A stretch of DNA of 64,000 bases from an uncultured cyanobacterium (GTDB lineage Bacteria; Cyanobacteriota; Cyanobacteriia; Cyanobacteriales; Cyanobacteriaceae): contig CAVVOP010000008.1 of assembly GCA_963749915.1 (NCBI GenBank), forward strand, positions 320,001 to 384,000, written 5' to 3'. The notes under the pieces are model-generated. The model ran no database searches. It had not been told where the DNA came from and saw nothing but the letters and a program-made list of their open reading frames with translations. Of this stretch, positions 44,908 through 57,028 are shown piece after piece. The stretch's first letter is position 1, and the number at the start of each line of letters is the position of its first letter. A program made the position numbers and the translations under genes.

Positions 44908-46089
44908 ATGCCAGAGAATAAACAGCCAGGAAAATACGATGCGGTAATAAAAAGAGTACCTCAAGCTCCTATGTATGGGGCGGTTATAGGAGGAATACAA
45001 GGGGTTAAACGAAGGTTTGAGTCGGCAAAGGATGTAAATTTAAAAGCAGAAATCCTGCAAGAAGCCTTACAGTACGAAAATCAAGGAATAGAGTTTATCT
45101 TACAGGTAGTTCAAGCTACTAATGAACAAGAAATCTTAGCGGTAGCCTATGATTTACTAAAGGAGAAACAAGAGTCAACAATTCAGAATGTATTATTAAC
45201 TCTGAAAAGAAAACATCCTTGGTTAGATTTACCTCAGTTTAGTTTCGACACAGTGAAGGTAAACCGTAAAGGAGAAATCATTAAACGAGAACAAAAAACC
45301 GCCCGTTACTACCGAGAAGATTTAGGAAAGGGTATTAATCTGGATATGGTTTATATTCAAGGTGGTACATTTATGATGGGAAGTCCAGACGGAGAAGGCA
45401 ATGACAGTGATGAAAAACCGCAACATCAGGTGACAGTATCATCATTTTTTATGGCTAAATATCCCGTAACTCAAGCCCAGTGGAAAGCCGTAGCATCATT
45501 ACCTAAAATTGAGAGAGACTTAAAATTAGATCCTTCTCGGTTTAAAGGAGATAATCGCCCTGTAGAAAAAGTTAACCGGTATGATGCCGTAGAATTCTGT
45601 CACCGTTTATCAAAACTAACAGGGAGAGAATACACCCTACCCAGTGAAGCTAAGTGGGAATATAGTTGTCGGGCGGGAACAACCACAACCTTTAACTGTG
45701 GTGAAACCATTACCACTGATTTAGCCAACTATAACGGTACAGATGAATATTACGGCAGTTATGCTGATGAACCGAAAGGGCAGTATAGGCAAGGAACAAC
45801 CTCTGTAGGCTCATTTCCTGCTAATGATTGGGGATTATCGGATATGCACGGCAACGTTTGGGAATGGTGTGCAGATGAATGGCATGGTAATTATAACAAT
45901 GCCCCTACAGATGGTAATGTGTGGACTGGGGGAGAAAGTAATCGTTGTGTAATGCGTGGTGGTTCATGGTTCTACAGCCCGAATAACTGCCGTTGTGCTA
46001 ACCGTCTCAACGACAACCGTGATTGCGACTACTACTGCAACAACGGCAACGGTTTTCGTGTTATGTCTATTTTCGGGAGGACTTCATAG
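44908..46089 (+). CDS. FGE-sulfatase/C-type-lectin-fold protein, DGR target 1
   Basis: MVYIQGGTFMMGS, EKPQH.V, YPVTQAQW, LPSEAKWEYSCRAGT, DMHGNVWEWC, RGGSW...R......NGFRV; AAC/NNC-rich variable 3' end; followed by avd. Confidence 0.9.
   Translation: MPENKQPGKYDAVIKRVPQAPMYGAVIGGIQGVKRRFESAKDVNLKAEILQEALQYENQGIEFILQVVQATNEQEILAVAYDLLKEKQESTIQNVLLTLKRKHPWLDLPQFSFDTVKVNRKGEIIKREQKTARYYREDLGKGINLDMVYIQGGTFMMGSPDGEGNDSDEKPQHQVTVSSFFMAKYPVTQAQWKAVASLPKIERDLKLDPSRFKGDNRPVEKVNRYDAVEFCHRLSKLTGREYTLPSEAKWEYSCRAGTTTTFNCGETITTDLANYNGTDEYYGSYADEPKGQYRQGTTSVGSFPANDWGLSDMHGNVWEWCADEWHGNYNNAPTDGNVWTGGESNRCVMRGGSWFYSPNNCRCANRLNDNRDCDYYCNNGNGFRVMSIFGRTS
45949..46089 (+). repeat. DGR variable region VR1 with IMH-like 3' end
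   Basis: differs from VR2 almost only at codon positions 1-2 of NNC/NNT codons; 3' GGTTTTCGTGTTATGTCTATTTTCGGGAGGACTTCATAG is identical in both. Confidence 0.8.
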
Positions 46090-46185: not shown

Positions 46186-46497
46186 ATGAAAGAATTATCC
46201 GTAATTCAAAAGACCTATGATTTGATAAAATGGTATGTACCAATAATTGAGAGACTACCAAAAACCCATAAGTTTACTATCGGAGATCGAATCATTAATA
46301 ATTTGTACGATTTATTAGAAGAATTAATTAAAGCAAAATATGCCCAAGAAAAACTAACTAGGTTGGAATCCTTAAATAATGTTTTAGACATATTACGGTA
46401 TCAAACAAGATTATTACTGGATTTTGAATTAATCTCTTTAAAACGTTATGAGTATGTTTGTCAACTGTTTCAAGAAATAGGCATAGAAATTGAATAA
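46186..46497 (+). CDS. avd: DGR accessory variability determinant Avd, apparently C-terminally truncated
   Basis: MKELSVIQKTYDLIKWYVP...LPK.HKFTIGDRI...LY.LLE.LI.AKY, LDILRYQTRLL; ends EIGIEIE* without the usual GGW.K end; start placed at ATG 46186. Confidence 0.85.
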   Translation: MKELSVIQKTYDLIKWYVPIIERLPKTHKFTIGDRIINNLYDLLEELIKAKYAQEKLTRLESLNNVLDILRYQTRLLLDFELISLKRYEYVCQLFQEIGIEIE

Positions 46498-46568: not shown

Positions 46569-48221
46569 ATGGCAGAAAATGGGAAGCAACCGGGAAAATA
46601 TGATGCCGTTATCACCAATAACCCCCACCAGAAATTAATCGAATCCTTAGATTTAAAATTACGCGCTCGTTATCCCTTACTCTACATCGTTGCCGTAGAA
46701 GAAGAACCAGTGGAACAAATTTTAGCCCAAGTAGCCTATCAATCGCAACCCCAACGAGAATTATTAATGTGGGATATTGTCAACGGTTGGAATGATAACA
46801 GTAAAGACAAAAACGCTGTTATGGGGGCATTGATGCGTATTAGTCAAACTGACGGCAATAAACCCTGTATATTTGTCCTCAAAGATTTAAACTTTATCCT
46901 CAAACAACCTGATAGTGCCAGTAACGCTCCCGTCATCAGGGCTTTAAAGAATTTAGGCAAAGAGCTTAAATATCGCCGTCAAACCTTGATTATAACTGGT
47001 CATACTGCGGTTGTACCTACGGACTTATCGGAAGAAATCACCGTCATTGACTTTCCCCTTCCTGAGATGACCGAAATAGATTACTTAATTAGAGAGTTAG
47101 TAGTACCAGAAAAACTGAACCTCAGTGGTTTAGGCAAAGAGCAATTAGTGAAAGCCTGTCTAGGATTGAGTCGTACCCGTATCCGTAGGGTTTTAGCTTC
47201 CGCCCTCGCCGCTAAACAGGAGGTAAATGAGGGTGATATTGACATTGTTTTAGAAGAGAAAAAACAAGCCATCCGTCAAACGGGTATCCTTGAGTTTTAT
47301 TCCTCCCATGAATCCTTGAAAAGTGTCGGCGGTTTGGATAGACTCAAACAGTGGTTACAAATCAAAAAGGATAGTTTTACCGAAAAAGCCCGTAAATATG
47401 GCATTCCTAACCCGAAAGGCTTATTTTTAGTCGGTATTCAAGGTACAGGAAAATCTTTATCGGCTAAAACCATCGCTAATGAATGGCGTTTACCCATGCT
47501 ACGGTTAGATACAGGACGATTATTTGGGGGCATTGTCGGCGAAAGTGAAAGTAAAACCCGTCAAATGATTCAATTAGCAGAAGCCATTTCACCCTGCGTA
47601 TTGTGGATGGATGAGATTGATAAAGCCTTTGGTAACATTTCAGGGGGCGGTGACGGAGATTCAGGCACATCTCGCCGTGTTTTTGGTACTTTAATTACTT
47701 GGATGCAGGAAAAAACTAGCCCTGTTTTCATCGTTGCCACCGCGAATAATGTGGAGATTTTACCCGCCGAATTACTGAGAAAAGGACGTTTTGACGAGAT
47801 ATTTTTCATTAACTTACCTAACCATCGAGAGCGCATGGAAATCTTTAAAGTTCATTTACAACGGTTACGCCCTCAACGACTCAGGGATTTTGACTTAAAA
47901 GAATTAGCTACTGCCACAGAAGAATTTAGTGGTGCAGAAATTGAGCAAGTTATTATTGATGCCATGAGTTTCGCCTTTGCCGATGAAAGTGCAGAAGCAA
48001 GGGATTTTACTAATACAGATATATTAACCGCCTGTGGTGATACCGTACCATTGGCAAGGGTAGCCACCAAACAGATTGAAGAGTTAAAACAATGGGCAGT
48101 GAAAACAGGTGCTAAAACTGCTTCTAAGGATATTGAATTAGAAAAGGAATTAGAAACTTATCGCCAACAAAAGGGCATTCGCCAGAGTCAATATCTCGAT
48201 GTAGATCCTCCCCAAAGTTAA
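46569..48221 (+). CDS. Ycf46-like AAA+ ATPase with N-terminal KQPGKYDAVI leader
   Basis: degenerate N-terminal ATPase domain (IFVLKD), Walker A GIQGTGKS, Walker B LWMDEIDK, VATAN, LLRKGRFDE. Confidence 0.9.
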   Translation: MAENGKQPGKYDAVITNNPHQKLIESLDLKLRARYPLLYIVAVEEEPVEQILAQVAYQSQPQRELLMWDIVNGWNDNSKDKNAVMGALMRISQTDGNKPCIFVLKDLNFILKQPDSASNAPVIRALKNLGKELKYRRQTLIITGHTAVVPTDLSEEITVIDFPLPEMTEIDYLIRELVVPEKLNLSGLGKEQLVKACLGLSRTRIRRVLASALAAKQEVNEGDIDIVLEEKKQAIRQTGILEFYSSHESLKSVGGLDRLKQWLQIKKDSFTEKARKYGIPNPKGLFLVGIQGTGKSLSAKTIANEWRLPMLRLDTGRLFGGIVGESESKTRQMIQLAEAISPCVLWMDEIDKAFGNISGGGDGDSGTSRRVFGTLITWMQEKTSPVFIVATANNVEILPAELLRKGRFDEIFFINLPNHRERMEIFKVHLQRLRPQRLRDFDLKELATATEEFSGAEIEQVIIDAMSFAFADESAEARDFTNTDILTACGDTVPLARVATKQIEELKQWAVKTGAKTASKDIELEKELETYRQQKGIRQSQYLDVDPPQS

Positions 48222-48278: not shown

Positions 48279-48767
48279 TTATTCTCCCGCTTGTTCAATG
48301 GCACAATCTATAAGATTTTGACTTAAATAAATATGAGACTTTTTCATGTTATCGATACAGTTACGGATAGAAATATTATATCCTTTCTGTTTGGCTTTCA
48401 GAAGTATGCCGAGGCAACCCGTAAGAGAAAGTCCATTGAGTCTTGCTATTCTTCTGCCTATGGCTTCATCAATGCAAACTGTCGTAATTTTTTTATCTAA
48501 GGCGAGTTGAATTACGGAAGCCTCTCCCAAATCTAAGGAATTTAGTAAAAAGGGTGAAATCTGGAGAGGTGATGATTGTTTTTGTAAGTAAGTATCGCTA
48601 TTAAATGCAGAAATAGCAAAACCAATTTTACCCCCAGCTAATATTTCTTGACAGACTTCATAGGGTACTAAAACTTGTTTGTAAAGATAGCTCAAAATTT
48701 TTAAATCCCCCAATGCGGAAACTAAAGCTATTATGGGGGAAGTATTGATAACAATAGTGTTAGGCAT
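48279..48767 (-). CDS. PIN-domain toxin (DUF3368-like)
   Basis: IVINTSPIIAL, V.VP.EV..EI, LDLGEASVI.LA, IDE..GR..A...GL...G.LGIL. Confidence 0.85.
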   Translation of the reverse strand: MPNTIVINTSPIIALVSALGDLKILSYLYKQVLVPYEVCQEILAGGKIGFAISAFNSDTYLQKQSSPLQISPFLLNSLDLGEASVIQLALDKKITTVCIDEAIGRRIARLNGLSLTGCLGILLKAKQKGYNISIRNCIDNMKKSHIYLSQNLIDCAIEQAGE

Positions 48768-49011
48768 TGGCTAAGTCTGATAATAATTCTTCTGGGGTTA
48801 AGTCAATCATTGATACACCATAATCAGCTAGTTTGAGTAAAAATGTTACTCTATCAACTCCTAATAATATTCCCGCCATTCCTGATGAAATTCGTTTCAT
48901 TTCAAATAGTTTTACTACCATTGCCCATTTTGCTTCTTGTTCAAATTCTTGAGGTGTTTGATTTAAAGCGTCGGGAAAAGTTGACGGATATTCGATAGTT
49001 ATTTGTGCCAT
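48760..49011 (-). CDS. UPF0175-family antitoxin
   Basis: VKLFEMKRISSGMAG.LLGVDRVTFL..L; overlaps the PIN toxin start. Confidence 0.85.
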   Translation of the reverse strand: MAQITIEYPSTFPDALNQTPQEFEQEAKWAMVVKLFEMKRISSGMAGILLGVDRVTFLLKLADYGVSMIDLTPEELLSDLANA

Positions 49012-49069
49012 CTGTCTTTAAATTTGATGTTTTTCACTCTATTTTACTCCCCTCACATCAATTTTACCT

Positions 49070-49292
49070 ATCGGCGGTAACAGACTTTTATAACGCATTG
49101 GGGCAATTTTTAAGTTATCGGTTGGTTTTAAGCCAAATTGAACCAAATAGAGCCTTATATTTAGCTATTCCTTTAGATACATATTTAGAGCTATTTGAAT
49201 CGGATTTTGGAGAATTGGTGATGAAAGAATATGAATTAAAATTAATTATCTATAATTCTAATAATGGAGATTTAACTCAATGGATAAATTAA
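49070..49292 (+). pseudogene. xisH: XisH C-terminal half
   Basis: SAVTDFYNALGQFLSYRLVL...EPNR.LYLAIP...Y...F...QWIN; N-terminal half missing; overlaps xisI start. Confidence 0.8.
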
Positions 49293-49615
49293 GCTTTTAT
49301 CGAGAAGCTATTAAGAGATTATTAATCGAATATACCGCATCGGAAAAATATGATGATGATTGCGAATCTCAATTAATTTTTGATGAAAAACAAGACCATT
49401 ATTTATGGTTAGAATTAGGTTGGGATGACTATAAAAGAATTTATTATACTGTAATTCACTTTGATATTAAAGATGGTAAGATATGGTTACAGCAAAATGC
49501 CACTGACTTAAACCCTGCGGAGGATTTAATTGAATTAGGAGTCAACCGAGAGGATATTATTTTAGGTTTACAACCCCCTTATAAACGCCCCTATACTAAT
49601 TATGGAGTGGCTTAA
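49280..49615 (+). CDS. xisI: XisI family protein
   Basis: MDKL..YR..I, QLIFD...DHY, GW, IHFDIKDGKIWLQ.N.T, DIILG.QPP..R.YT.YGVA. Confidence 0.9.
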   Translation: MDKLSFYREAIKRLLIEYTASEKYDDDCESQLIFDEKQDHYLWLELGWDDYKRIYYTVIHFDIKDGKIWLQQNATDLNPAEDLIELGVNREDIILGLQPPYKRPYTNYGVA

Positions 49616-49648: not shown

Positions 49649-50022
49649 ATGTCACATTTTACTACTATCAAAGTTCAAATCAAAAACGGCGAGATTTTAC
49701 ATAAAACCTTACAAGAGTTGGGTTATACCGTCGAAACTAATACCAACGTCAGAGGCTATCAAGGCATAAAAACCGAAGCTGAATATGTCATTCGTCAAAA
49801 TAATGGTTATGATTTAGGCTTCCGCCGTCAAGGGGATAATTATGAGTTAGTGGCGGACTTTTGGGGTGCTAAAATTGACCAGACTAATTTATTAATGACA
49901 TCTCTCAGAAATATGCTCATTATACTTTGATGGAAGAGGTGGAAAAGCAAGGTTTTAATATCGAAGAAGAGCAAACTTTGGAAGACGGCACTTTGCGGTT
50001 AGTCGTAGGTAGATGGGTTTAA
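49649..50022 (+). pseudogene. DUF1257 (Ycf35-like) protein, frameshifted
   Basis: MSHFTTIKVQI...YDLGF...YELVADFW; adding one T near 49888-49890 restores FINDISQKYAH...GF.IEEEQTLEDGTLRLVVGRWV*. Confidence 0.8.
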
Positions 50023-50277: not shown

Positions 50278-50330
50278 GCCTAATTGTGATATGATCTTGG
50301 TTTAGGACTTAATTAAAAGATAATTTTTGT

Positions 50331-50562
50331 ATGTCGGCAAAAGATAAGTTTCACCAAGCCGTAAAAAATGCTTTAATCAAGGAACAATGGAAAATTACCC
50401 ATGATCCTTTATTATTGACTTTGACAATGCCCGATTCAAATTGATTTAGGGGCAGAGTCTTTGATAGCGGCGGAGAAATCTTCTCGTAAAATTGCCGTTG
50501 AAGTCAAAAGTTTCCTTGGTAATTCAACTGTCTATGAGTTTCATTTAGCCGTAGGGCAATAA
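50331..50562 (+). pseudogene. xisH: XisH N-terminal half, frameshifted
   Basis: MSAKDKFHQAVKNALIKEQWKITHDPL / QIDLGAESLIAAEK...KIAVEVKSFL....VYEFHLAVGQ* across two -1 shifts. Confidence 0.85.
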
Positions 50563-50618: not shown

Positions 50619-51737
50619 ATGCCAGAGAATAAACAGCCAGAGAAATACGATGCGGTGATAAAAAGAGTACCTCAAGCTCCTATGTATGGGGCGGTTATAG
50701 GTGGAATACAAGGGGTTAAACGAAGTTTTGAGTCGGCACAGGATGTTAATTTAAAAGCAGAAATCCTCCGAGAAGCGTTACAGTACGAAAATCAAGGAAT
50801 CGAGTTTATTCTACAAGTATTAGAATCACAGGATTTTGAGTTACAGTGGAAAGCCTATGAGATACTAAAGAATAGACCTGAAACTCAAATCAAGGCAAAA
50901 TTCGATAATTGTTTGCCTGTCTTCAGTTTCGACACAGTGAAGGTAAACCGTAAAGGAGAAGTAATTAAACGAGAACAAAAAACCGCCCGTTACTACCGAG
51001 AAGATTTAGGAAAGGGTATTAATCTGGATATGGTTTATATTCAAGGTGGTACATTTATGATGGGAAGTCCACACGGAGAAGGTTATAGTGATGAAAAACC
51101 GCAACATCGGGTGACAGTACCATCATTCTTTATGGCTAAATACCCCGTCACTCAAGCCCAGTGGAAAGCCGTAGCATCTGAGAGAAACTTAGAATTAAAT
51201 CCTTCTGAGTTTAAAGGAGATAATCGCCCTGTGGAAATGGTTAACTGGTATGATGCGGTAGAATTCTGTCACCGTTTATCAAAACTAACAGGGAGAGAAT
51301 ACACCCTACCCAGTGAAGCCAAGTGGGAATATAGTTGTCGGGCGGGAACAACCACAGCCTTTAACTGTGGTGAAACCATTACCACTGATTTAGCCAACTA
51401 TGACGGTACAGATGAATATTACGGCAGTTATGCTGATGAACCGAAAGGGGAGTATAGGGAAGGAACAACCCCTGTAGGGTCATTTCCTGCTAATGATTGG
51501 GGATTATATGATATGCACGGTAACGTCTGGGAATGGTGTGCAGATGAATGGCATGAAGATTATAACAATGCCCCTACAGATGGTAATGTGTGGACTGGAG
51601 GAGAAAGTAATTGTAGTGTAATGCGTGGTGGTTCATGGCACGACGGGCCGAGTGGCTGCCGTTGTGCTAGCCGTCTCAGCTACGACCCCTACAACTACGG
51701 TTTTCGTGTTATGTCTATTTTCGGGAGGACTTCATAG
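50619..51737 (+). CDS. FGE-sulfatase/C-type-lectin-fold protein, DGR target 2
   Basis: near-identical paralogue of 44908-46089 with a different linker and a different variable 3' end. Confidence 0.9.
   Translation: MPENKQPEKYDAVIKRVPQAPMYGAVIGGIQGVKRSFESAQDVNLKAEILREALQYENQGIEFILQVLESQDFELQWKAYEILKNRPETQIKAKFDNCLPVFSFDTVKVNRKGEVIKREQKTARYYREDLGKGINLDMVYIQGGTFMMGSPHGEGYSDEKPQHRVTVPSFFMAKYPVTQAQWKAVASERNLELNPSEFKGDNRPVEMVNWYDAVEFCHRLSKLTGREYTLPSEAKWEYSCRAGTTTAFNCGETITTDLANYDGTDEYYGSYADEPKGEYREGTTPVGSFPANDWGLYDMHGNVWEWCADEWHEDYNNAPTDGNVWTGGESNCSVMRGGSWHDGPSGCRCASRLSYDPYNYGFRVMSIFGRTS
51618..51737 (+). repeat. DGR variable region VR2
   Basis: aligns to VR1 with codon-position-1/2 substitutions; 21 nt shorter. 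Confidence 0.78.
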
Positions 51738-52081: not shown

Positions 52082-53023
52082 CTATGATTGGTGCAAGATT
52101 TGAGTATGAGAATTTAACCAGTTAATTAAATCATCGAGACATTGAAAATCAAAAATAGCATCCCCTAAATCTTCAATTTGGCATAAGGATAAATCATTAA
52201 TTTGCCTTTCCAACTCAGGAGAAAACTCCCCGAAACGTTTTTTAATTTGACGCTTAACGAGATTTTGTTCACCTTGGTGTAACCCACGCTGTAAGCCGAT
52301 TTCAATGCCTTCTTCCATCCAACTGGTGACAATTTTCATAATTTGTTCTTCCTCTGCTAATCCTATTTGTTTTAATTCGGTTTCAAATTCTTGGGTTTCC
52401 GTTAGATTTAATTTTAAATAAGTATCCACAAATCCTGAAATTAACTCTATTCTAGCGGGATCTAAACTTAAAGTAGCTAACATTCTCAGACATTCTAATT
52501 TTACCTTAGCTCTTTCCTCTGATTTAAAGTCCATTTTTGCCATTAAAGCGGCGGCGATAGGATTGGGTTGATTTAAAAATTGTCGCCAATTAAGTCGATT
52601 TAACTGGATAGTCGTGTAGTTAAATTCGAGGATTTTTTTATCAGGAAATGTAACTAAATATTAATTTGTTTCCTCTCGTTTTGGCTTATCATAGGAAAAG
52701 ATAACTACAGGATAAATTGGTAAACGATATTTAGCATCTAAACGAGCAAAATAATGAAACATTCGCCGTTCAAATTCGCTCTGATTATAGGCTTGATTTT
52801 CAATATGGATGAGGAAAAAACGGTTTTCTTCTTGCCATTTTACTTGGGCGAGTAAGTCGATTTTTCGTTTATCTCCTGCGGTTACATCGATAAAAACTTC
52901 TTCAGGTAAAAAAGTTAAACTATCTTTTGATATATATTGTAAAATATCGGGAATAAATAATTCAATAAATTCCCAGAAAAATGTCTGGATTAATTCTTTA
53001 AAAAGACGGTCATGATCTATCAT
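52082..53023 (-). pseudogene. Rpn/YhgA-like (DUF4351 C-terminus) putative nuclease split by an in-frame TAA
   Basis: DHDRLFKELI.TFF.EF, IDLL, LIHIENQ; the same frame continues after TAA 52661-52663 (YLVTFPDKKILEFNY...NPIAAALMAKM) to a DUF4351-like end. Confidence 0.85.
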
Positions 53024-53126
53024 ATTTGTTCATAACTTATAGGTTGATGATTTTTAGTAATAATAATATCTTTCCCTTTAAAAGAAGTATAATTAAAAAT
53101 GTATAAAATCAAAAACAAAGTCACCC

Positions 53127-53339
53127 ATGGCTGAATATCAACGAATAGAGTACCAAATCGGCAAAGACGGTAAAATCACAGAAAGGGTAATTGATGCCAG
53201 TGGTAATAGTTGTCTGCAACCTACCCAAGCATTAGAAGAAGCATTAGGAGAAATAGAATCAAGGGAATTACTCCCTGAATATTACGAAGGAGAAGAAAAC
53301 TTAACCACCGATAATATTCAACGATCGAAATCATTGTAA
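53127..53339 (+). CDS. DUF2997-family protein
   Basis: IEY.IGKDGKITE.V..ASG.SC...T..LEEALG.I..RE..PEYY; usual partner of DUF1257 and Ycf46-like ATPase. Confidence 0.8.
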   Translation: MAEYQRIEYQIGKDGKITERVIDASGNSCLQPTQALEEALGEIESRELLPEYYEGEENLTTDNIQRSKSL

Positions 53340-53403
53340 GCTAGTTCACATCTCAATACTGCTTGGTTAGTCGCTCAAGTTATTTTGTCCGCCCCCTAAA
53401 TCC

Positions 53404-53510
53404 CTGACAAGGGTAGGTTTTTTACATTTGGGTTGAGACAAGACAAGGAAGGAACGAAGGACAGCAGACAAGGGAGATAGTAGAAACGAAAAATGGTCTT
53501 TTTAGCCATT
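53404..53510 (+). mobile_element. isolated IS end (same TIR as 8038)
   Basis: CTGACAAGGGTAGGTTTTTTACA is identical to 8038-8060 and is followed by GACAAGG repeats. Confidence 0.75.
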
Positions 53511-53554
53511 TATGTATTATTTGTAACAAAATGTTTCTTAAACGATTCCCCTCT

Positions 53555-54126
53555 TCCCAATACTGCTCGGTTAGTGGTAAAAACGTTACGGTGAGGTTAA
53601 AGTAATGAGTAATAAGTAATGAGTAATAAGTAATCAGTAATAAGTAATGAGTAATAAGTAATGAGTAATAAGTAAATATTTATTGTTTATAGAGACAGAA
53701 GATTTTGCTATCAGAATTATTAAAGCTTATTCCGAACTGAACAAAAGGAACTTTGATGATGCAGCTAAAGTTTTATCAAAACAATTTTTAAGAAGTGGGA
53801 CATCAATTGGGGCTAATTGTTCAGAAGCAAAATATGCACAGTCGAAGAAGGATTTATTAACAAATATTCTATAGCTTTAAAAGCAGCAAATGAGACCCTT
53901 TATTGGATAAAAATAATGATTAAATCAGAGCTAGTATCACAATCTAAATTTCAAAAAATGATAGAAGAGAATGAAAGAATTATTAAAATATTAATGAGTT
54001 CAATCAATAAATTAAAAGAAAAACAATCTAGTTAAATTTTTATTCATTACTCATTACTCATTACTCATTACTCATTACTTCATCTTCACAGTAAGATTTT
54101 CGGGCAAATCCCTCGCAGTATTGGGA
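53555..54126 (+). mobile_element. TIR-bounded cassette carrying a four-helix-bundle gene between inverted heptamer arrays
   Basis: 12-bp TIR TCCCAATACTGC/GCAGTATTGGGA; (AGTAATR)x10 at 53601-53675 and (CATTACT)x5 at 54045-54079. Confidence 0.8.
53683..54035 (+). pseudogene. four-helix-bundle protein (23S rRNA IVP family), frameshifted
   Basis: FAIRIIK...LSKQFLRSGTSIGAN.SEA..AQSKKD / FINKYSIALK.ANET.YW; one T missing near 53853. Confidence 0.85.
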
Positions 54127-54828: not shown

Positions 54829-55395
54829 ATGGATTTTAATTATCTATTAACAAGCATATTTTTATGGCTAATAATTAGCCTTTTATTATTGACAGTTTTT
54901 GCTTCCTCATCACCTTCTAATCAAGGTAAATTTAAAGATTTTAAAGACAATAAATCTCAGGATTTAGATAACGATTCGGGTAAAGAAGAAATCATCGCCC
55001 TTCAACAACAATGCCAAAGATTAAGAGAGGAATTAGAAGCCCAATCTAACCAGTTAAAAGATGATTTTCGTAGTGACACTTTTGAACAATTACAGCCTTT
55101 ATTAACTAACTATCCCACCGCCCGTGAGATGGCAAAAGCTAAACCAGATTTACCCGCTAAAAATCTAGTATCTTTGTTCACATCCTTAGAAAACTTGTTA
55201 GAAAGTTGGGGTTATGAAACCATTGGCACACCGTGGGAAGAAGTTAATTATAATCCTCAAATTCATCAAGGTGACAGTGATGATATTGAAGTAGGGGAAT
55301 CGGTTTATATCCGTTTTGTAGGCTACCGTGACGGCGATAATATTCTTTATCCTGCGAAAGTAAGTCTCAATCTTCCTCCCAATTTAAAAAGTTAA
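54829..55395 (+). CDS. membrane-anchored GrpE-like nucleotide exchange factor
   Basis: N-terminal TM helix, coiled coil, C-terminal IG...V.YNPQIHQ...GY..GD.IL.PAKVS GrpE-type beta domain; directly upstream of Hsp70. Confidence 0.75.
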   Translation: MDFNYLLTSIFLWLIISLLLLTVFASSSPSNQGKFKDFKDNKSQDLDNDSGKEEIIALQQQCQRLREELEAQSNQLKDDFRSDTFEQLQPLLTNYPTAREMAKAKPDLPAKNLVSLFTSLENLLESWGYETIGTPWEEVNYNPQIHQGDSDDIEVGESVYIRFVGYRDGDNILYPAKVSLNLPPNLKS

Positions 55396-55429: not shown

Positions 55430-57028
55430 ATGACTACTGTAGCGATTGATTTTGGCACAAGTAACACCGTTGTTAGTATTATCGAACCCGATACCAAACA
55501 AGCAAAATCCCTCCGTTTTGAGAAAATGTCGAGGGTATTTCGGATGAAACTTAATAACGGCTCAGTGTCAGAAATTCCCGTCATCCCTAGCTTAGTGTTT
55601 ATCAAAGAAGGACATGAATTAATATTAGGAGAACAAGTGCGCACTGGTCGGTTAGGATGTAGTAAGCCTGAACGATTTTTTAAAGCCTTTAAAAGAGATT
55701 TAGCCGCCGAATATCGCTCCCCTACGAAGATAATAGAAGGTAAAGAATACCCATCAGAAGCAGTAGCAGAAATATTTTTAAAAGAAATTTGGCAACAACT
55801 GAAATTACAACATTTAACTCCCTCTCAAGTAATATTTACCGTGCCAGTAGGAGGCTTTGAAAGTTACTCGAATTGGTGTCGTGACTTAGCCACAGGATTA
55901 GGCATTGAAAAAATCCAATTAGTCGATGAATCCACCGCCGCCGCCTTCGGTTATGCCGTTAAAAAGCCCGGTGCTTTAGTTTTAGTAGTGGACTTTGGAG
56001 GGGGTACATTAGACTTAAGTTTAGTGCGTACTGTCGGCACTTCCCCAAAATTAAAAGAATTAAAAGGAGAGGTTTTAGCGAAAACTCAAGCCTATGTGGG
56101 AGGAGAAGATATTGATATTTGGTTAATGGAAGATTACTTGCAAAAACAGGGTATTTCTAAAAACGATTTAAGTAGTGTTAGTTGGCAGAATTTATTAGAA
56201 ATAGCCGAGCGTCTTAAGATACAGTTATCCTTTAAAGAAGAAGCAAAGGAAAGTTGGTTAGATGAGGAAACCTTTACTTCCTATGATATTGCTTTAAATC
56301 GACCACAACTCAAAGAAATATTAGAAACTCAACAACTATTACCTCAATTACGGGATTGTCTCGATGAAGTTATTCAGATGTCAATGGGTAAGGGCATCAA
56401 TAAAAAACACATTGAGAAAGTAGTTTTAGTAGGCGGCAGTTGTTTAATTGCATCTGTAAGAGAATTAATTACTTCTTATTTTGGACCAGAAAAAGTCCTG
56501 ATCAATAAACCCTTTGAAGCGGTGTCTCAAGGGGCTTTAACTGTTGGTTTATTAGAAAACGTAGATGACCATTTATACCATAGCTACGCCCTTCGTACAT
56601 GGAATCCCTTGACTCAGGAAAATGATTATGATCCTTTATTTCCATCAGGCATACAATATCCCTGTGAATTAGAACATCCTTTAGTTCTTCAATGTGCCAA
56701 TAATGGACAAGATGCCATTTACCTTGATATTGGGCAAGTGGCAGAAATGGGAAAAGCGGAGTTAAGTTATGATGCTTCGGGTAAAATGACCAGTGGTATG
56801 GTTAAATCTAAAACTACTTACAAATCCCTCACCTATGAACTAGACTGGCAAGGAAATGTCGTCAAATCCGCTTGTATCGCTAAATTACATCCTCTTGGCA
56901 CTGTGGGAAAAGATCGTCTTAAACTGCATTTGGAAGTGGATGAGGGGCGAATGTTATTGACTACTGTTACGGATATTCTCACCCAACAAGTATTAGTCTA
57001 TAAGAAAGCGATCGCTCGCCTTGATTAA
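55430..57028 (+). CDS. atypical Hsp70-family protein
   Basis: AIDFGTSNT, TVPVGG, ESTAAA, VVDFGGGTLDLS, GGEDID, AERLKIQLS, VLVGGS; short divergent C-terminus without a lid. Confidence 0.9.
   Translation: MTTVAIDFGTSNTVVSIIEPDTKQAKSLRFEKMSRVFRMKLNNGSVSEIPVIPSLVFIKEGHELILGEQVRTGRLGCSKPERFFKAFKRDLAAEYRSPTKIIEGKEYPSEAVAEIFLKEIWQQLKLQHLTPSQVIFTVPVGGFESYSNWCRDLATGLGIEKIQLVDESTAAAFGYAVKKPGALVLVVDFGGGTLDLSLVRTVGTSPKLKELKGEVLAKTQAYVGGEDIDIWLMEDYLQKQGISKNDLSSVSWQNLLEIAERLKIQLSFKEEAKESWLDEETFTSYDIALNRPQLKEILETQQLLPQLRDCLDEVIQMSMGKGINKKHIEKVVLVGGSCLIASVRELITSYFGPEKVLINKPFEAVSQGALTVGLLENVDDHLYHSYALRTWNPLTQENDYDPLFPSGIQYPCELEHPLVLQCANNGQDAIYLDIGQVAEMGKAELSYDASGKMTSGMVKSKTTYKSLTYELDWQGNVVKSACIAKLHPLGTVGKDRLKLHLEVDEGRMLLTTVTDILTQQVLVYKKAIARLD

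Follow-up and report, generated by a model that had tools for sequence, protein, structure and literature searches.

Gene content of the locus

The window, the whole 64,000-nucleotide stretch of cyanobacterial DNA analysed here, carries a five-gene module built around a Ycf46-like AAA+ ATPase of a distinct subfamily (46569..48221, + strand). The other members, all present in the window, are a DUF1257 protein, a DUF2997 protein, a putatively membrane-anchored GrpE-like protein and a lidless Hsp70. The ATPase combines a degenerate N-terminal AAA-like module, which gave no Pfam AAA match, with a C-terminal AAA module that has a lid and Walker A/B motifs, and a DUF1257 gene is linked to it, as is typical of Ycf46-like ATPases. 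Its layout is that of a two-ring p97/Cdc48-like protein, and the structural model resembles the D1–D2 part of p97/Cdc48, at a model pTM of only 0.48. The subfamily is set off by score from housekeeping Ycf46 paralogues, with bit scores above 620 in 34 of 301 sampled genomes and below 570 in the remainder.

The DUF1257 (Ycf35-like) gene (49649..50022, +) is frameshifted near position 49880 in this assembly, as judged against an intact 124-aa orthologue in locus L031; the frameshift is either an assembly error or decay, and the local module may be decaying. Among the pieces listed for DNA contigs of sequencing runs, none spans the frameshift. An Atlas search with DUF1257 returned nothing at 0.9 or above. 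The DUF2997 gene (53127..53339, +) and the short Hsp70 of a module-specific subfamily (532 aa; 55430..57028, +) were assigned by domain match and locus comparison. The GrpE-like protein (54829..55395, +) matches GrpE below the cut-off (E 0.0018), and its hydrophobic N-terminal segment is likely a membrane anchor. Small genes split the module at 48279-49615, 50330-50560 and 52082-54035 (a DUF3368/UPF0175 pair, an XisH fragment, XisI, DUF4351, YhgA-like pieces and four-helix-bundle fragments).

Neighbour clustering over the window and 80 related ATPase loci, many of which end at contig edges, identified the conserved partners. Among these 81 loci, DUF1257 occurs in 69, the GrpE-like protein with a hydrophobic N-terminus in 37, DUF2997 in 35 and a short Hsp70 in 35 (one of them an ordinary DnaK). 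At many loci (L044, L052, L068, L071, L072 and others), the ATPase is followed by a tandem pair of divergent DUF1257 paralogues, of 124 and 135 aa. Eight of the 80 loci (L044, L052, L068, L080, L083, L095, L100 and L102) add an STM4011 radical SAM gene to the module, together with STM4015-type proteins that bear the leader. PADLOC, run on 10 proteins, gave just generic ATPase (IetA, TRIP13) and partial Hsp70 matches, and the components of no single anti-phage system were matched. Elsewhere in this genome, two copies of a Ycf46 paralogue (C20:130234-131730 and C22:17496-18992) have identical scores and N-termini, reflecting either a recent duplication or assembly redundancy.

Two orphaned DGR-type genes flank the ATPase

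The ATPase lies between two genes, here called T1 (44908..46089, +) and T2 (50619..51737, +), which by domain match and paralogue comparison each encode an N-terminal leader followed by an FGE-sulfatase (C-type lectin) domain. T2 is a recent paralogue of T1, and the differences between them are concentrated in a variable 3' region of the type found in targets of diversity-generating retroelements (DGRs). The gene for the DGR accessory protein Avd (46186..46497, +) adjoins T1 on its 3' side, and neither a template repeat nor a reverse transcriptase (RT) follows it. The initial annotation had called T1 and T2 DGR targets; they are indeed FGE-sulfatase genes next to Avd, with a C-terminal C-type lectin/FGE domain and a variable 3' end, but the template repeats on contigs C1 and C23 differ from their variable regions by 13-21 non-adenine mismatches, compared with 2-4 in true cognate pairs. 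No cognate template repeat with an RT was found for them in this assembly of 34 contigs, from which a template could be missing; no RT lies at the locus, and the RTs of the genome lie elsewhere. These comparisons make 'orphaned DGR-type genes' the most fitting name for T1 and T2. The slots of T1 and T2 are filled in other strains by pentapeptide, GUN4 or WD40 heads, so the DGR is incidental to the peptide described below.

Other DGR remnants occur in the genome. At C23:555-2950 lies a DGR whose RT is broken by three stops; its template is cognate to a local and a remote (C21:764170-765260) FGE target. At C5:190088-190420, a relic of a T1-type 3' end precedes an Avd fragment that shares 95% identity with the Avd of the window.

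A short peptide shared by the ATPase, T1 and T2

The N-terminus of the ATPase (ORF start 46569) reads MAENGKQPGKYDAVI, and those of T1 and T2, re-read from the window, are as first reported. The shared peptide, termed the tag, occupies residues 6–15 of the ATPase (46584..46613, +), 44920..44949 (+) in T1 and 50631-50660 (+) within the T2 gene. Over KQPGKYDAVI, the ATPase and T1 are identical at 10/10 residues, yet 7/10 codons differ, by seven nucleotide differences that are all synonymous and all at third positions; eight of the same ten codons differ between the ATPase and T2. A six-frame pattern scan of the 4.69 Mb genome found three copies of the motif, every one at the present locus. The N-termini of the genome's 3875 ORFs were ranked with a scoring matrix based on 53 leaders from other lineages, with rows of the window and of Geminocystis excluded; the ATPase (21.2 bits), T1 (15.8) and T2 (13.2) came first to third, far above the next ORF (3.4) and the mean (−19.4). 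Because a matrix from other lineages singles out these three, their resemblance is, by this measure, not due to chance.

The initial annotation would have been overturned by an ATPase start downstream of the peptide. The sole in-frame ATG, GTG, TTG or CTG upstream of residue 48 is, however, the ATG at 46569, and residues 16–45 are identical (30/30) to those of the orthologue from Geminocystis sp. CENA526, the closest named relative (84% identity). As no other start precedes residue 48 while this first helix is conserved, translation should begin at ATG 46569, which places the tag inside the predicted ATPase protein. In the monomer model, residues 1–16 have pLDDT<50, and the tag thus falls in the part predicted to be disordered.

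The proposal that purifying selection maintains a short common tag, as opposed to a recent DNA copy, is borne out by the same orthologue. Between the two ATPases, the tag is identical at 8/10 residues, with synonymous changes in 4 of those 8 codons, while the flanking residues 1–5 agree at only 1/5, a contrast that makes selection on the ATPase tag visible. Near-consensus tags are also present on ATPase orthologues of distant clades.

The tag is the first motif of a modular leader

An alignment of 57 leaders places the peptide as the first motif of a leader of ~85 aa that appears to be without existing annotation. Its layout is QPxEYDAVLGG, a proline-rich spacer, a second motif xLGGIEGVK and then helices. 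In an AlphaFold model of T1, residues 1–28 are disordered and 29–85 helical, and motif 2 with the HEAT-like helices (29–39, 43–70 and 74–85) maps to 44980..45162 (+), as placed by the alignment, this model and Pfam comparison. The helical half (positions 36–85) weakly matches HEAT/alphaRep (PF13646, PF02985) and GUN4_N (PF16416), the best HEAT_2 match among the 57 leaders being E 2e-5; neither the tag nor motif 2 is covered by any of these families. None of the 57 leaders matched NCBIfam (0/57), a fold search with the leader model gave nothing at E<=0.001, and an Atlas search with the leader returned just unnamed cyanobacterial clusters and HEAT clusters. The initial annotation treated the tag as common to the ATPase and its neighbours; the ATPase does carry the 10-residue motif, and only that, but what the neighbours carry is larger and includes motif 2 and the HEAT-like helices.

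In the present genome, the full-leader profile finds T1 and T2 only. Across clusters at 50% identity, it finds 1109 at E<=0.001 and 741 at 1e-10, so that the QPxxYDAV..GG..GVK leader on diverse proteins, mentioned in the initial annotation, exists. Listing of the architectures, as originally suggested, placed the leader ahead of WD40, FGE/C-type-lectin, GUN4, LRR, pentapeptide, TPR and other binding domains. The heads of these cargo proteins were surveyed in 50 locus proteins and in 108 of the 150 profile matches listed. Among the 108, WD40 propellers number ~39 (counted by hand), GUN4 12, FGE-sulfatase 7, receiver domains 5, TPR 4, pentapeptide 3, CBM96 1 and LamG 1, and about one-third have no family; the locus proteins add LRV repeats and STM4015-type proteins. 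No nuclease, peptidase, kinase or TIR domain was among the top families shown for the 108.

The tag also occurs without the helices, in tag-only pentapeptide proteins at five loci and in proteins where tag and motif 2 are fused straight onto other domains; to judge from these architectures, it is separable from the HEAT-like helices. It lies within ~7 residues of the Met in nearly all listed loci, and all 144 N-terminal leader copies keep it (144/144, in a set chosen by leader score). Of 18 internal copies, seven keep the tag (two of these probably reflecting early start calls) and the others keep helices only. In four clusters, the tag is intact although placed behind a receiver domain. Tandem repeats of the leader also occur.

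Fusions of the leader to response-regulator receivers were seen in P0161, P0245, P0248, P0270 and P0215, four of them with the leader behind the receiver and the tag intact, and it is possible that phosphorylation could control tag exposure in such proteins. A cargo gene upstream of an ATPase (L130:4545-6020, G296) has an in-frame stop right after the tag.

Leader and ATPase co-occur genome-wide

Around the ATPase loci, a strict pattern found 121 leader genes in 47/80 loci, and in 35/49 loci of at least 15 kb; several of the 14 long loci missed hold leader variants skipped by this pattern. Among the 301 sampled genomes, the leader is present in 33, the ATPase subfamily in 34 and both in 31 (31/33 and 31/34), counts that overstate independence because the sampled genomes are kin, so that Fisher p-values for them carry no weight here. 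Co-occurrence spans nine family codes and is patchy within genera, being found in one of two congeners in one case and in 5/8 genomes of another genus. The ATPase lacks a detected leader in G212, G266 and G298; the leader lacks the ATPase subfamily in G152 (where motif 1 is missing) and G260 (a weak match), both kept as exceptions in the counts. In G266 and G298, an 849-aa extended Hsp70 of the same group is encoded at another locus (L119:8397-10943 and L121:2940-5486).

In G056, G190, G272 and G002, the ATPase, the Hsp70 block and the cargo genes lie at separate loci, yet all are present. The link of the tag with neighbouring genes, as first proposed, thus holds in that the leader family accompanies the ATPase subfamily, but it is genome-wide and not merely local. 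The suggested check of whether the ATPase tag follows leader-bearing neighbours found untagged ATPases also in genomes rich in tagged neighbours.

The module's Hsp70 is nearly as faithful a companion. Its subfamily (E below 1e-100) is present in 34/301 genomes, in 29/33 leader genomes and in most long loci. Extended hydrophobic peptides are known Hsp70 ligands, and the tag might be a client peptide of the private lidless Hsp70, in which case the GrpE-like anchor and the Hsp70 would gather cargo and tagged ATPases at the membrane. It also fits this explanation that the housekeeping Ycf46 paralogues of the present genome are untagged. The near-invariant Asp of the tag is, however, atypical of DnaK clients. 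Moreover, leader genes are intact in five genomes in which the Hsp70 is just a fragment beside ATPase and leader (G104, G200) or split (G062, G148, G252), and the Hsp70 subfamily persists in three (G137, G208, G182) without the ATPase subfamily or any tagged protein, G182 having only a HEAT fragment. The genome pattern therefore leans towards the ATPase over the Hsp70 as the tag's companion, in few genomes and with block deletions as a conceivable explanation for G137, G208 and G104. An Hsp70-client peptide is accordingly considered unlikely, although it is the strongest competitor of docking to the ATPase module.

Comparison with known systems

The arrangement recalls the effector-associated domains (EADs) of NTP-dependent ternary conflict systems, in which the core NTPase and its variable neighbours have a small module in common (Kaur et al. 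2020, PMC7159879). As set out in parts of that article, EADs are small, non-enzymatic, mostly helical domains with homotypic binding and lineage-specific copies, one copy is always fused to the core component, and the partners are usually enzymatic effectors or signalling domains (PMC7159879). DGR-linked sensors of ternary conflict systems are treated by Dore et al. 2024 (PMC10907252). The present system is similar in having a small module on a core NTPase and variable neighbours, further genomic copies correlated with the core, a closer likeness among copies from the same lineage (rank 1 of 24 permutations over four lineages, weak by size), heads such as FGE/C-type lectin, GUN4, WD40, pentapeptide and TPR, and a tie to DGR-type genes.

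It differs in several respects. Its core is a Ycf46/p97-like ATPase with DUF1257, DUF2997, GrpE-like protein and Hsp70, whereas EAD cores are MoxR-vWA, STAND or GTPase. The copy on the core is not constant, being only a short motif found in 34 (plus 13 eroded) of 204 subfamily rows. The partners are predominantly binding repeats and lectin-like folds in place of enzymes, with 5/108 receivers and about one-third without a family. Taken as a whole, the leader is a small helical unit, but what the ATPase has of it is a disordered stretch of ~10 residues. No EAD family was among the Pfam hits to E 1 for the 57 leaders, and EAD1 matches only contig C21. Because the copy is not always on the core, the partners are not enzymatic and no sequence match was found, the leader falls outside the EADs. 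The EAD1 gene pair on C21 (770040-770603) lies ~5 kb from the remote FGE target on that contig.

Homotypic coupling of the EAD type, in which the tag would bind motif 2 or the HEAT helices of another leader so that receptor chains form and a tagged ATPase attaches, is considered quite improbable. It matches EAD grammar as partly set out in PMC7159879 (a copy on the core NTPase, on neighbours and elsewhere, with lineage-specific likeness), and tandem leader repeats exist. Against it, the ATPase has only the 10-residue motif and no domain, and lacks even this in most lineages that keep many cargo genes, and some cargo proteins retain the tag after losing the helices.

The housekeeping Ycf46 and Ycf35 (DUF1257) genes have been described, in a preprint consulted in part, as belonging to a stress-induced three-gene operon (Synpcc7942_0416-0418; bioRxiv 10.1101/2025.07.21.665879), and DUF1257/Ycf35 is called uncharacterised in a passage of PMC13060386. 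Like the Ycf46/Ycf35 operon of cyanobacteria and plastids, the module has a homologous ATPase (~50% identity to the housekeeping paralogue) that travels with DUF1257 and DUF2997. Unlike it, the module ATPase forms a separate subfamily (60–84% identity, bits >620, 34/301 genomes) with its own Hsp70/GrpE and tagged cargo.

Several AAA+ machines recognise short linear motifs, among them Vps4 (MIT–MIM), p97 with its cofactor motifs and ClpV–TssC. The module resembles these in pairing a p97-like two-ring ATPase with a disordered motif on partner proteins; it differs in that its ATPase has no MIT or p97 N-domain, the motif is unrelated and the ATPase itself may carry the motif. The system would be an adaptor-coupled NTPase system with a short motif in place of a domain.

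The N-terminal domains of cyanobacterial DGR targets have been listed, and neither 'HEAT' nor 'AAA' appears in the main text of that article (Vallota-Eastman et al. 2020, PMC7517822). The available portion of a GUN4 phylogeny paper (PMC10156173) contains neither 'N-terminal' nor 'HEAT', and two supplementary files of PMC7159879 and 12 of the 13 of PMC8195603 contain none of five sought terms. No description of the tag was found in the literature on Ycf46/DUF1257/DUF2997, DGRs or conflict systems, a search extending mostly to journals outside subscription. The tag system is real and widespread, and within the range of these searches it is undescribed.

The ATPase tag is optional

In a tree of 206 rows (204 of the subfamily and two outgroups), 34 ATPases are tagged, 13 eroded and 159 untagged, with at least 10 state changes. 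A clear tag is seen in Geminocystis, an early-branching group (L015, P0036, P0058), Merismopediaceae/Synechocystis-type rows and two further clades; it is eroded elsewhere. The tagged share varies with sampling, from 24/113 in a protein search whose query included the tag to 3/68 in a Nostocales-rich locus set. In the locus sample, the tag is absent from 64/68 ATPases, and Anabaena-type and Nostoc ATPases are untagged although they stand among up to eight tagged genes. Upstream DNA common to Anabaena-type ATPases and their cargo genes was considered, and none was seen by eye in the 60 bases upstream at 10 loci; a deletion between two NNP repeats might account for the shared MNNP start.

The cargo tags that ATPase tags match best are those from the same lineage (rank 1 of 24 permutations; eight genomes, four lineages, weak by size). 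Ile after DAV occurs in 2/126 cargo leaders, both from Geminocystis, and also in Geminocystis ATPases. Since tagged rows occur in several clades and resemble cargo tags of the same lineage, the ATPase tag is no local fusion relic. The initial annotation had offered a leftover fusion, with orthologues lacking the tag, as the finding that would count against it; the tag does extend beyond the present genome, though most orthologues are without it, which makes it optional on the ATPase. In tagged ATPases of distant clades, the distance to the first helix is similarly short, and motif 2 is present in none listed. This spacing, the missing motif 2 and the erosion series favour an old ATPase tag lost many times over repeated capture, the tree itself not separating gain from loss.

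That the ATPase tag is a neutral relic, taken over in one or several events from the 5' end of a cargo gene lying upstream, is thus improbable. Cargo genes do often lie directly upstream of the ATPase, and erosion in many clades with repeated state changes would suit a relic. It would not suit the conserved tag beside a diverged flank in the Geminocystis orthologues, the spacing shared by distant tagged ATPases, or an ATPase tag that outscores the cargo tags of its own genome. It is highly improbable that the tag serves as a signal for export or sorting at the N-terminus: its position near the Met and its retention in all N-terminal copies of the score-selected set would fit, but a tag left intact behind receiver domains indicates that a free N-terminus is not required, which favours docking. 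The tag is also found on a cytosolic ATPase, and the conserved neighbours across the 80 loci and the window include no transport gene.

A proposed docking motif for interchangeable receptors

The tag is conserved, modular, co-inherited and disordered, and the cargo tag very probably has a functional docking role, whichever protein receives it. The reading preferred here, tentatively and at slightly less than an even chance, is that this docking motif couples interchangeable receptors to the ATPase module and that the ATPase's own tag is a dispensable regulatory mimic. The tag would bind a site on the module (the ATPase ring with DUF1257/DUF2997), and a receptor with a caught ligand would dock through it. 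The p97-like ring would then remodel or unfold the docked complex, with assistance from the membrane-tethered GrpE/Hsp70 pair. The ATPase's own tag would occupy the same site as a pseudo-substrate or latch and be displaced by cargo tags; on this proposal, it could be lost while cargo tags could not.

Heads that vary and are in part of DGR type, together with a patchy spread, point by analogy to a possible role in surveillance of invaders or damaged complexes. In its widest and rather doubtful form, the proposal is that of an undescribed cyanobacterial receptor-and-remodelling system, probably immune-like. Here, a ten-residue tag would be the universal plug between an open library of receptors, some DGR-diversified and some receiver-gated, and a p97-like ATPase with its membrane-tethered Hsp70; the tag on the ATPase would be a built-in autoinhibitor. 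Such a system would be a bacterial counterpart of ubiquitin-ligase-adaptor/p97 logic without ubiquitin.

Whatever its full extent, the tag probably plugs binding proteins into a little-studied chaperone machine. Should it suffice to bring passenger proteins to the ATPase, cyanobacterial engineering would gain a portable targeting tag. Peptide binding would provide a direct assay for the long-uncharacterised Ycf46, Ycf35 and DUF2997 families, which also survive in plastids. By sequence, the leader would place in one machine several hundred cyanobacterial 'orphan' proteins of the WD40, GUN4-paralogue, pentapeptide, LRR and C-type-lectin kinds (the 741 clusters).
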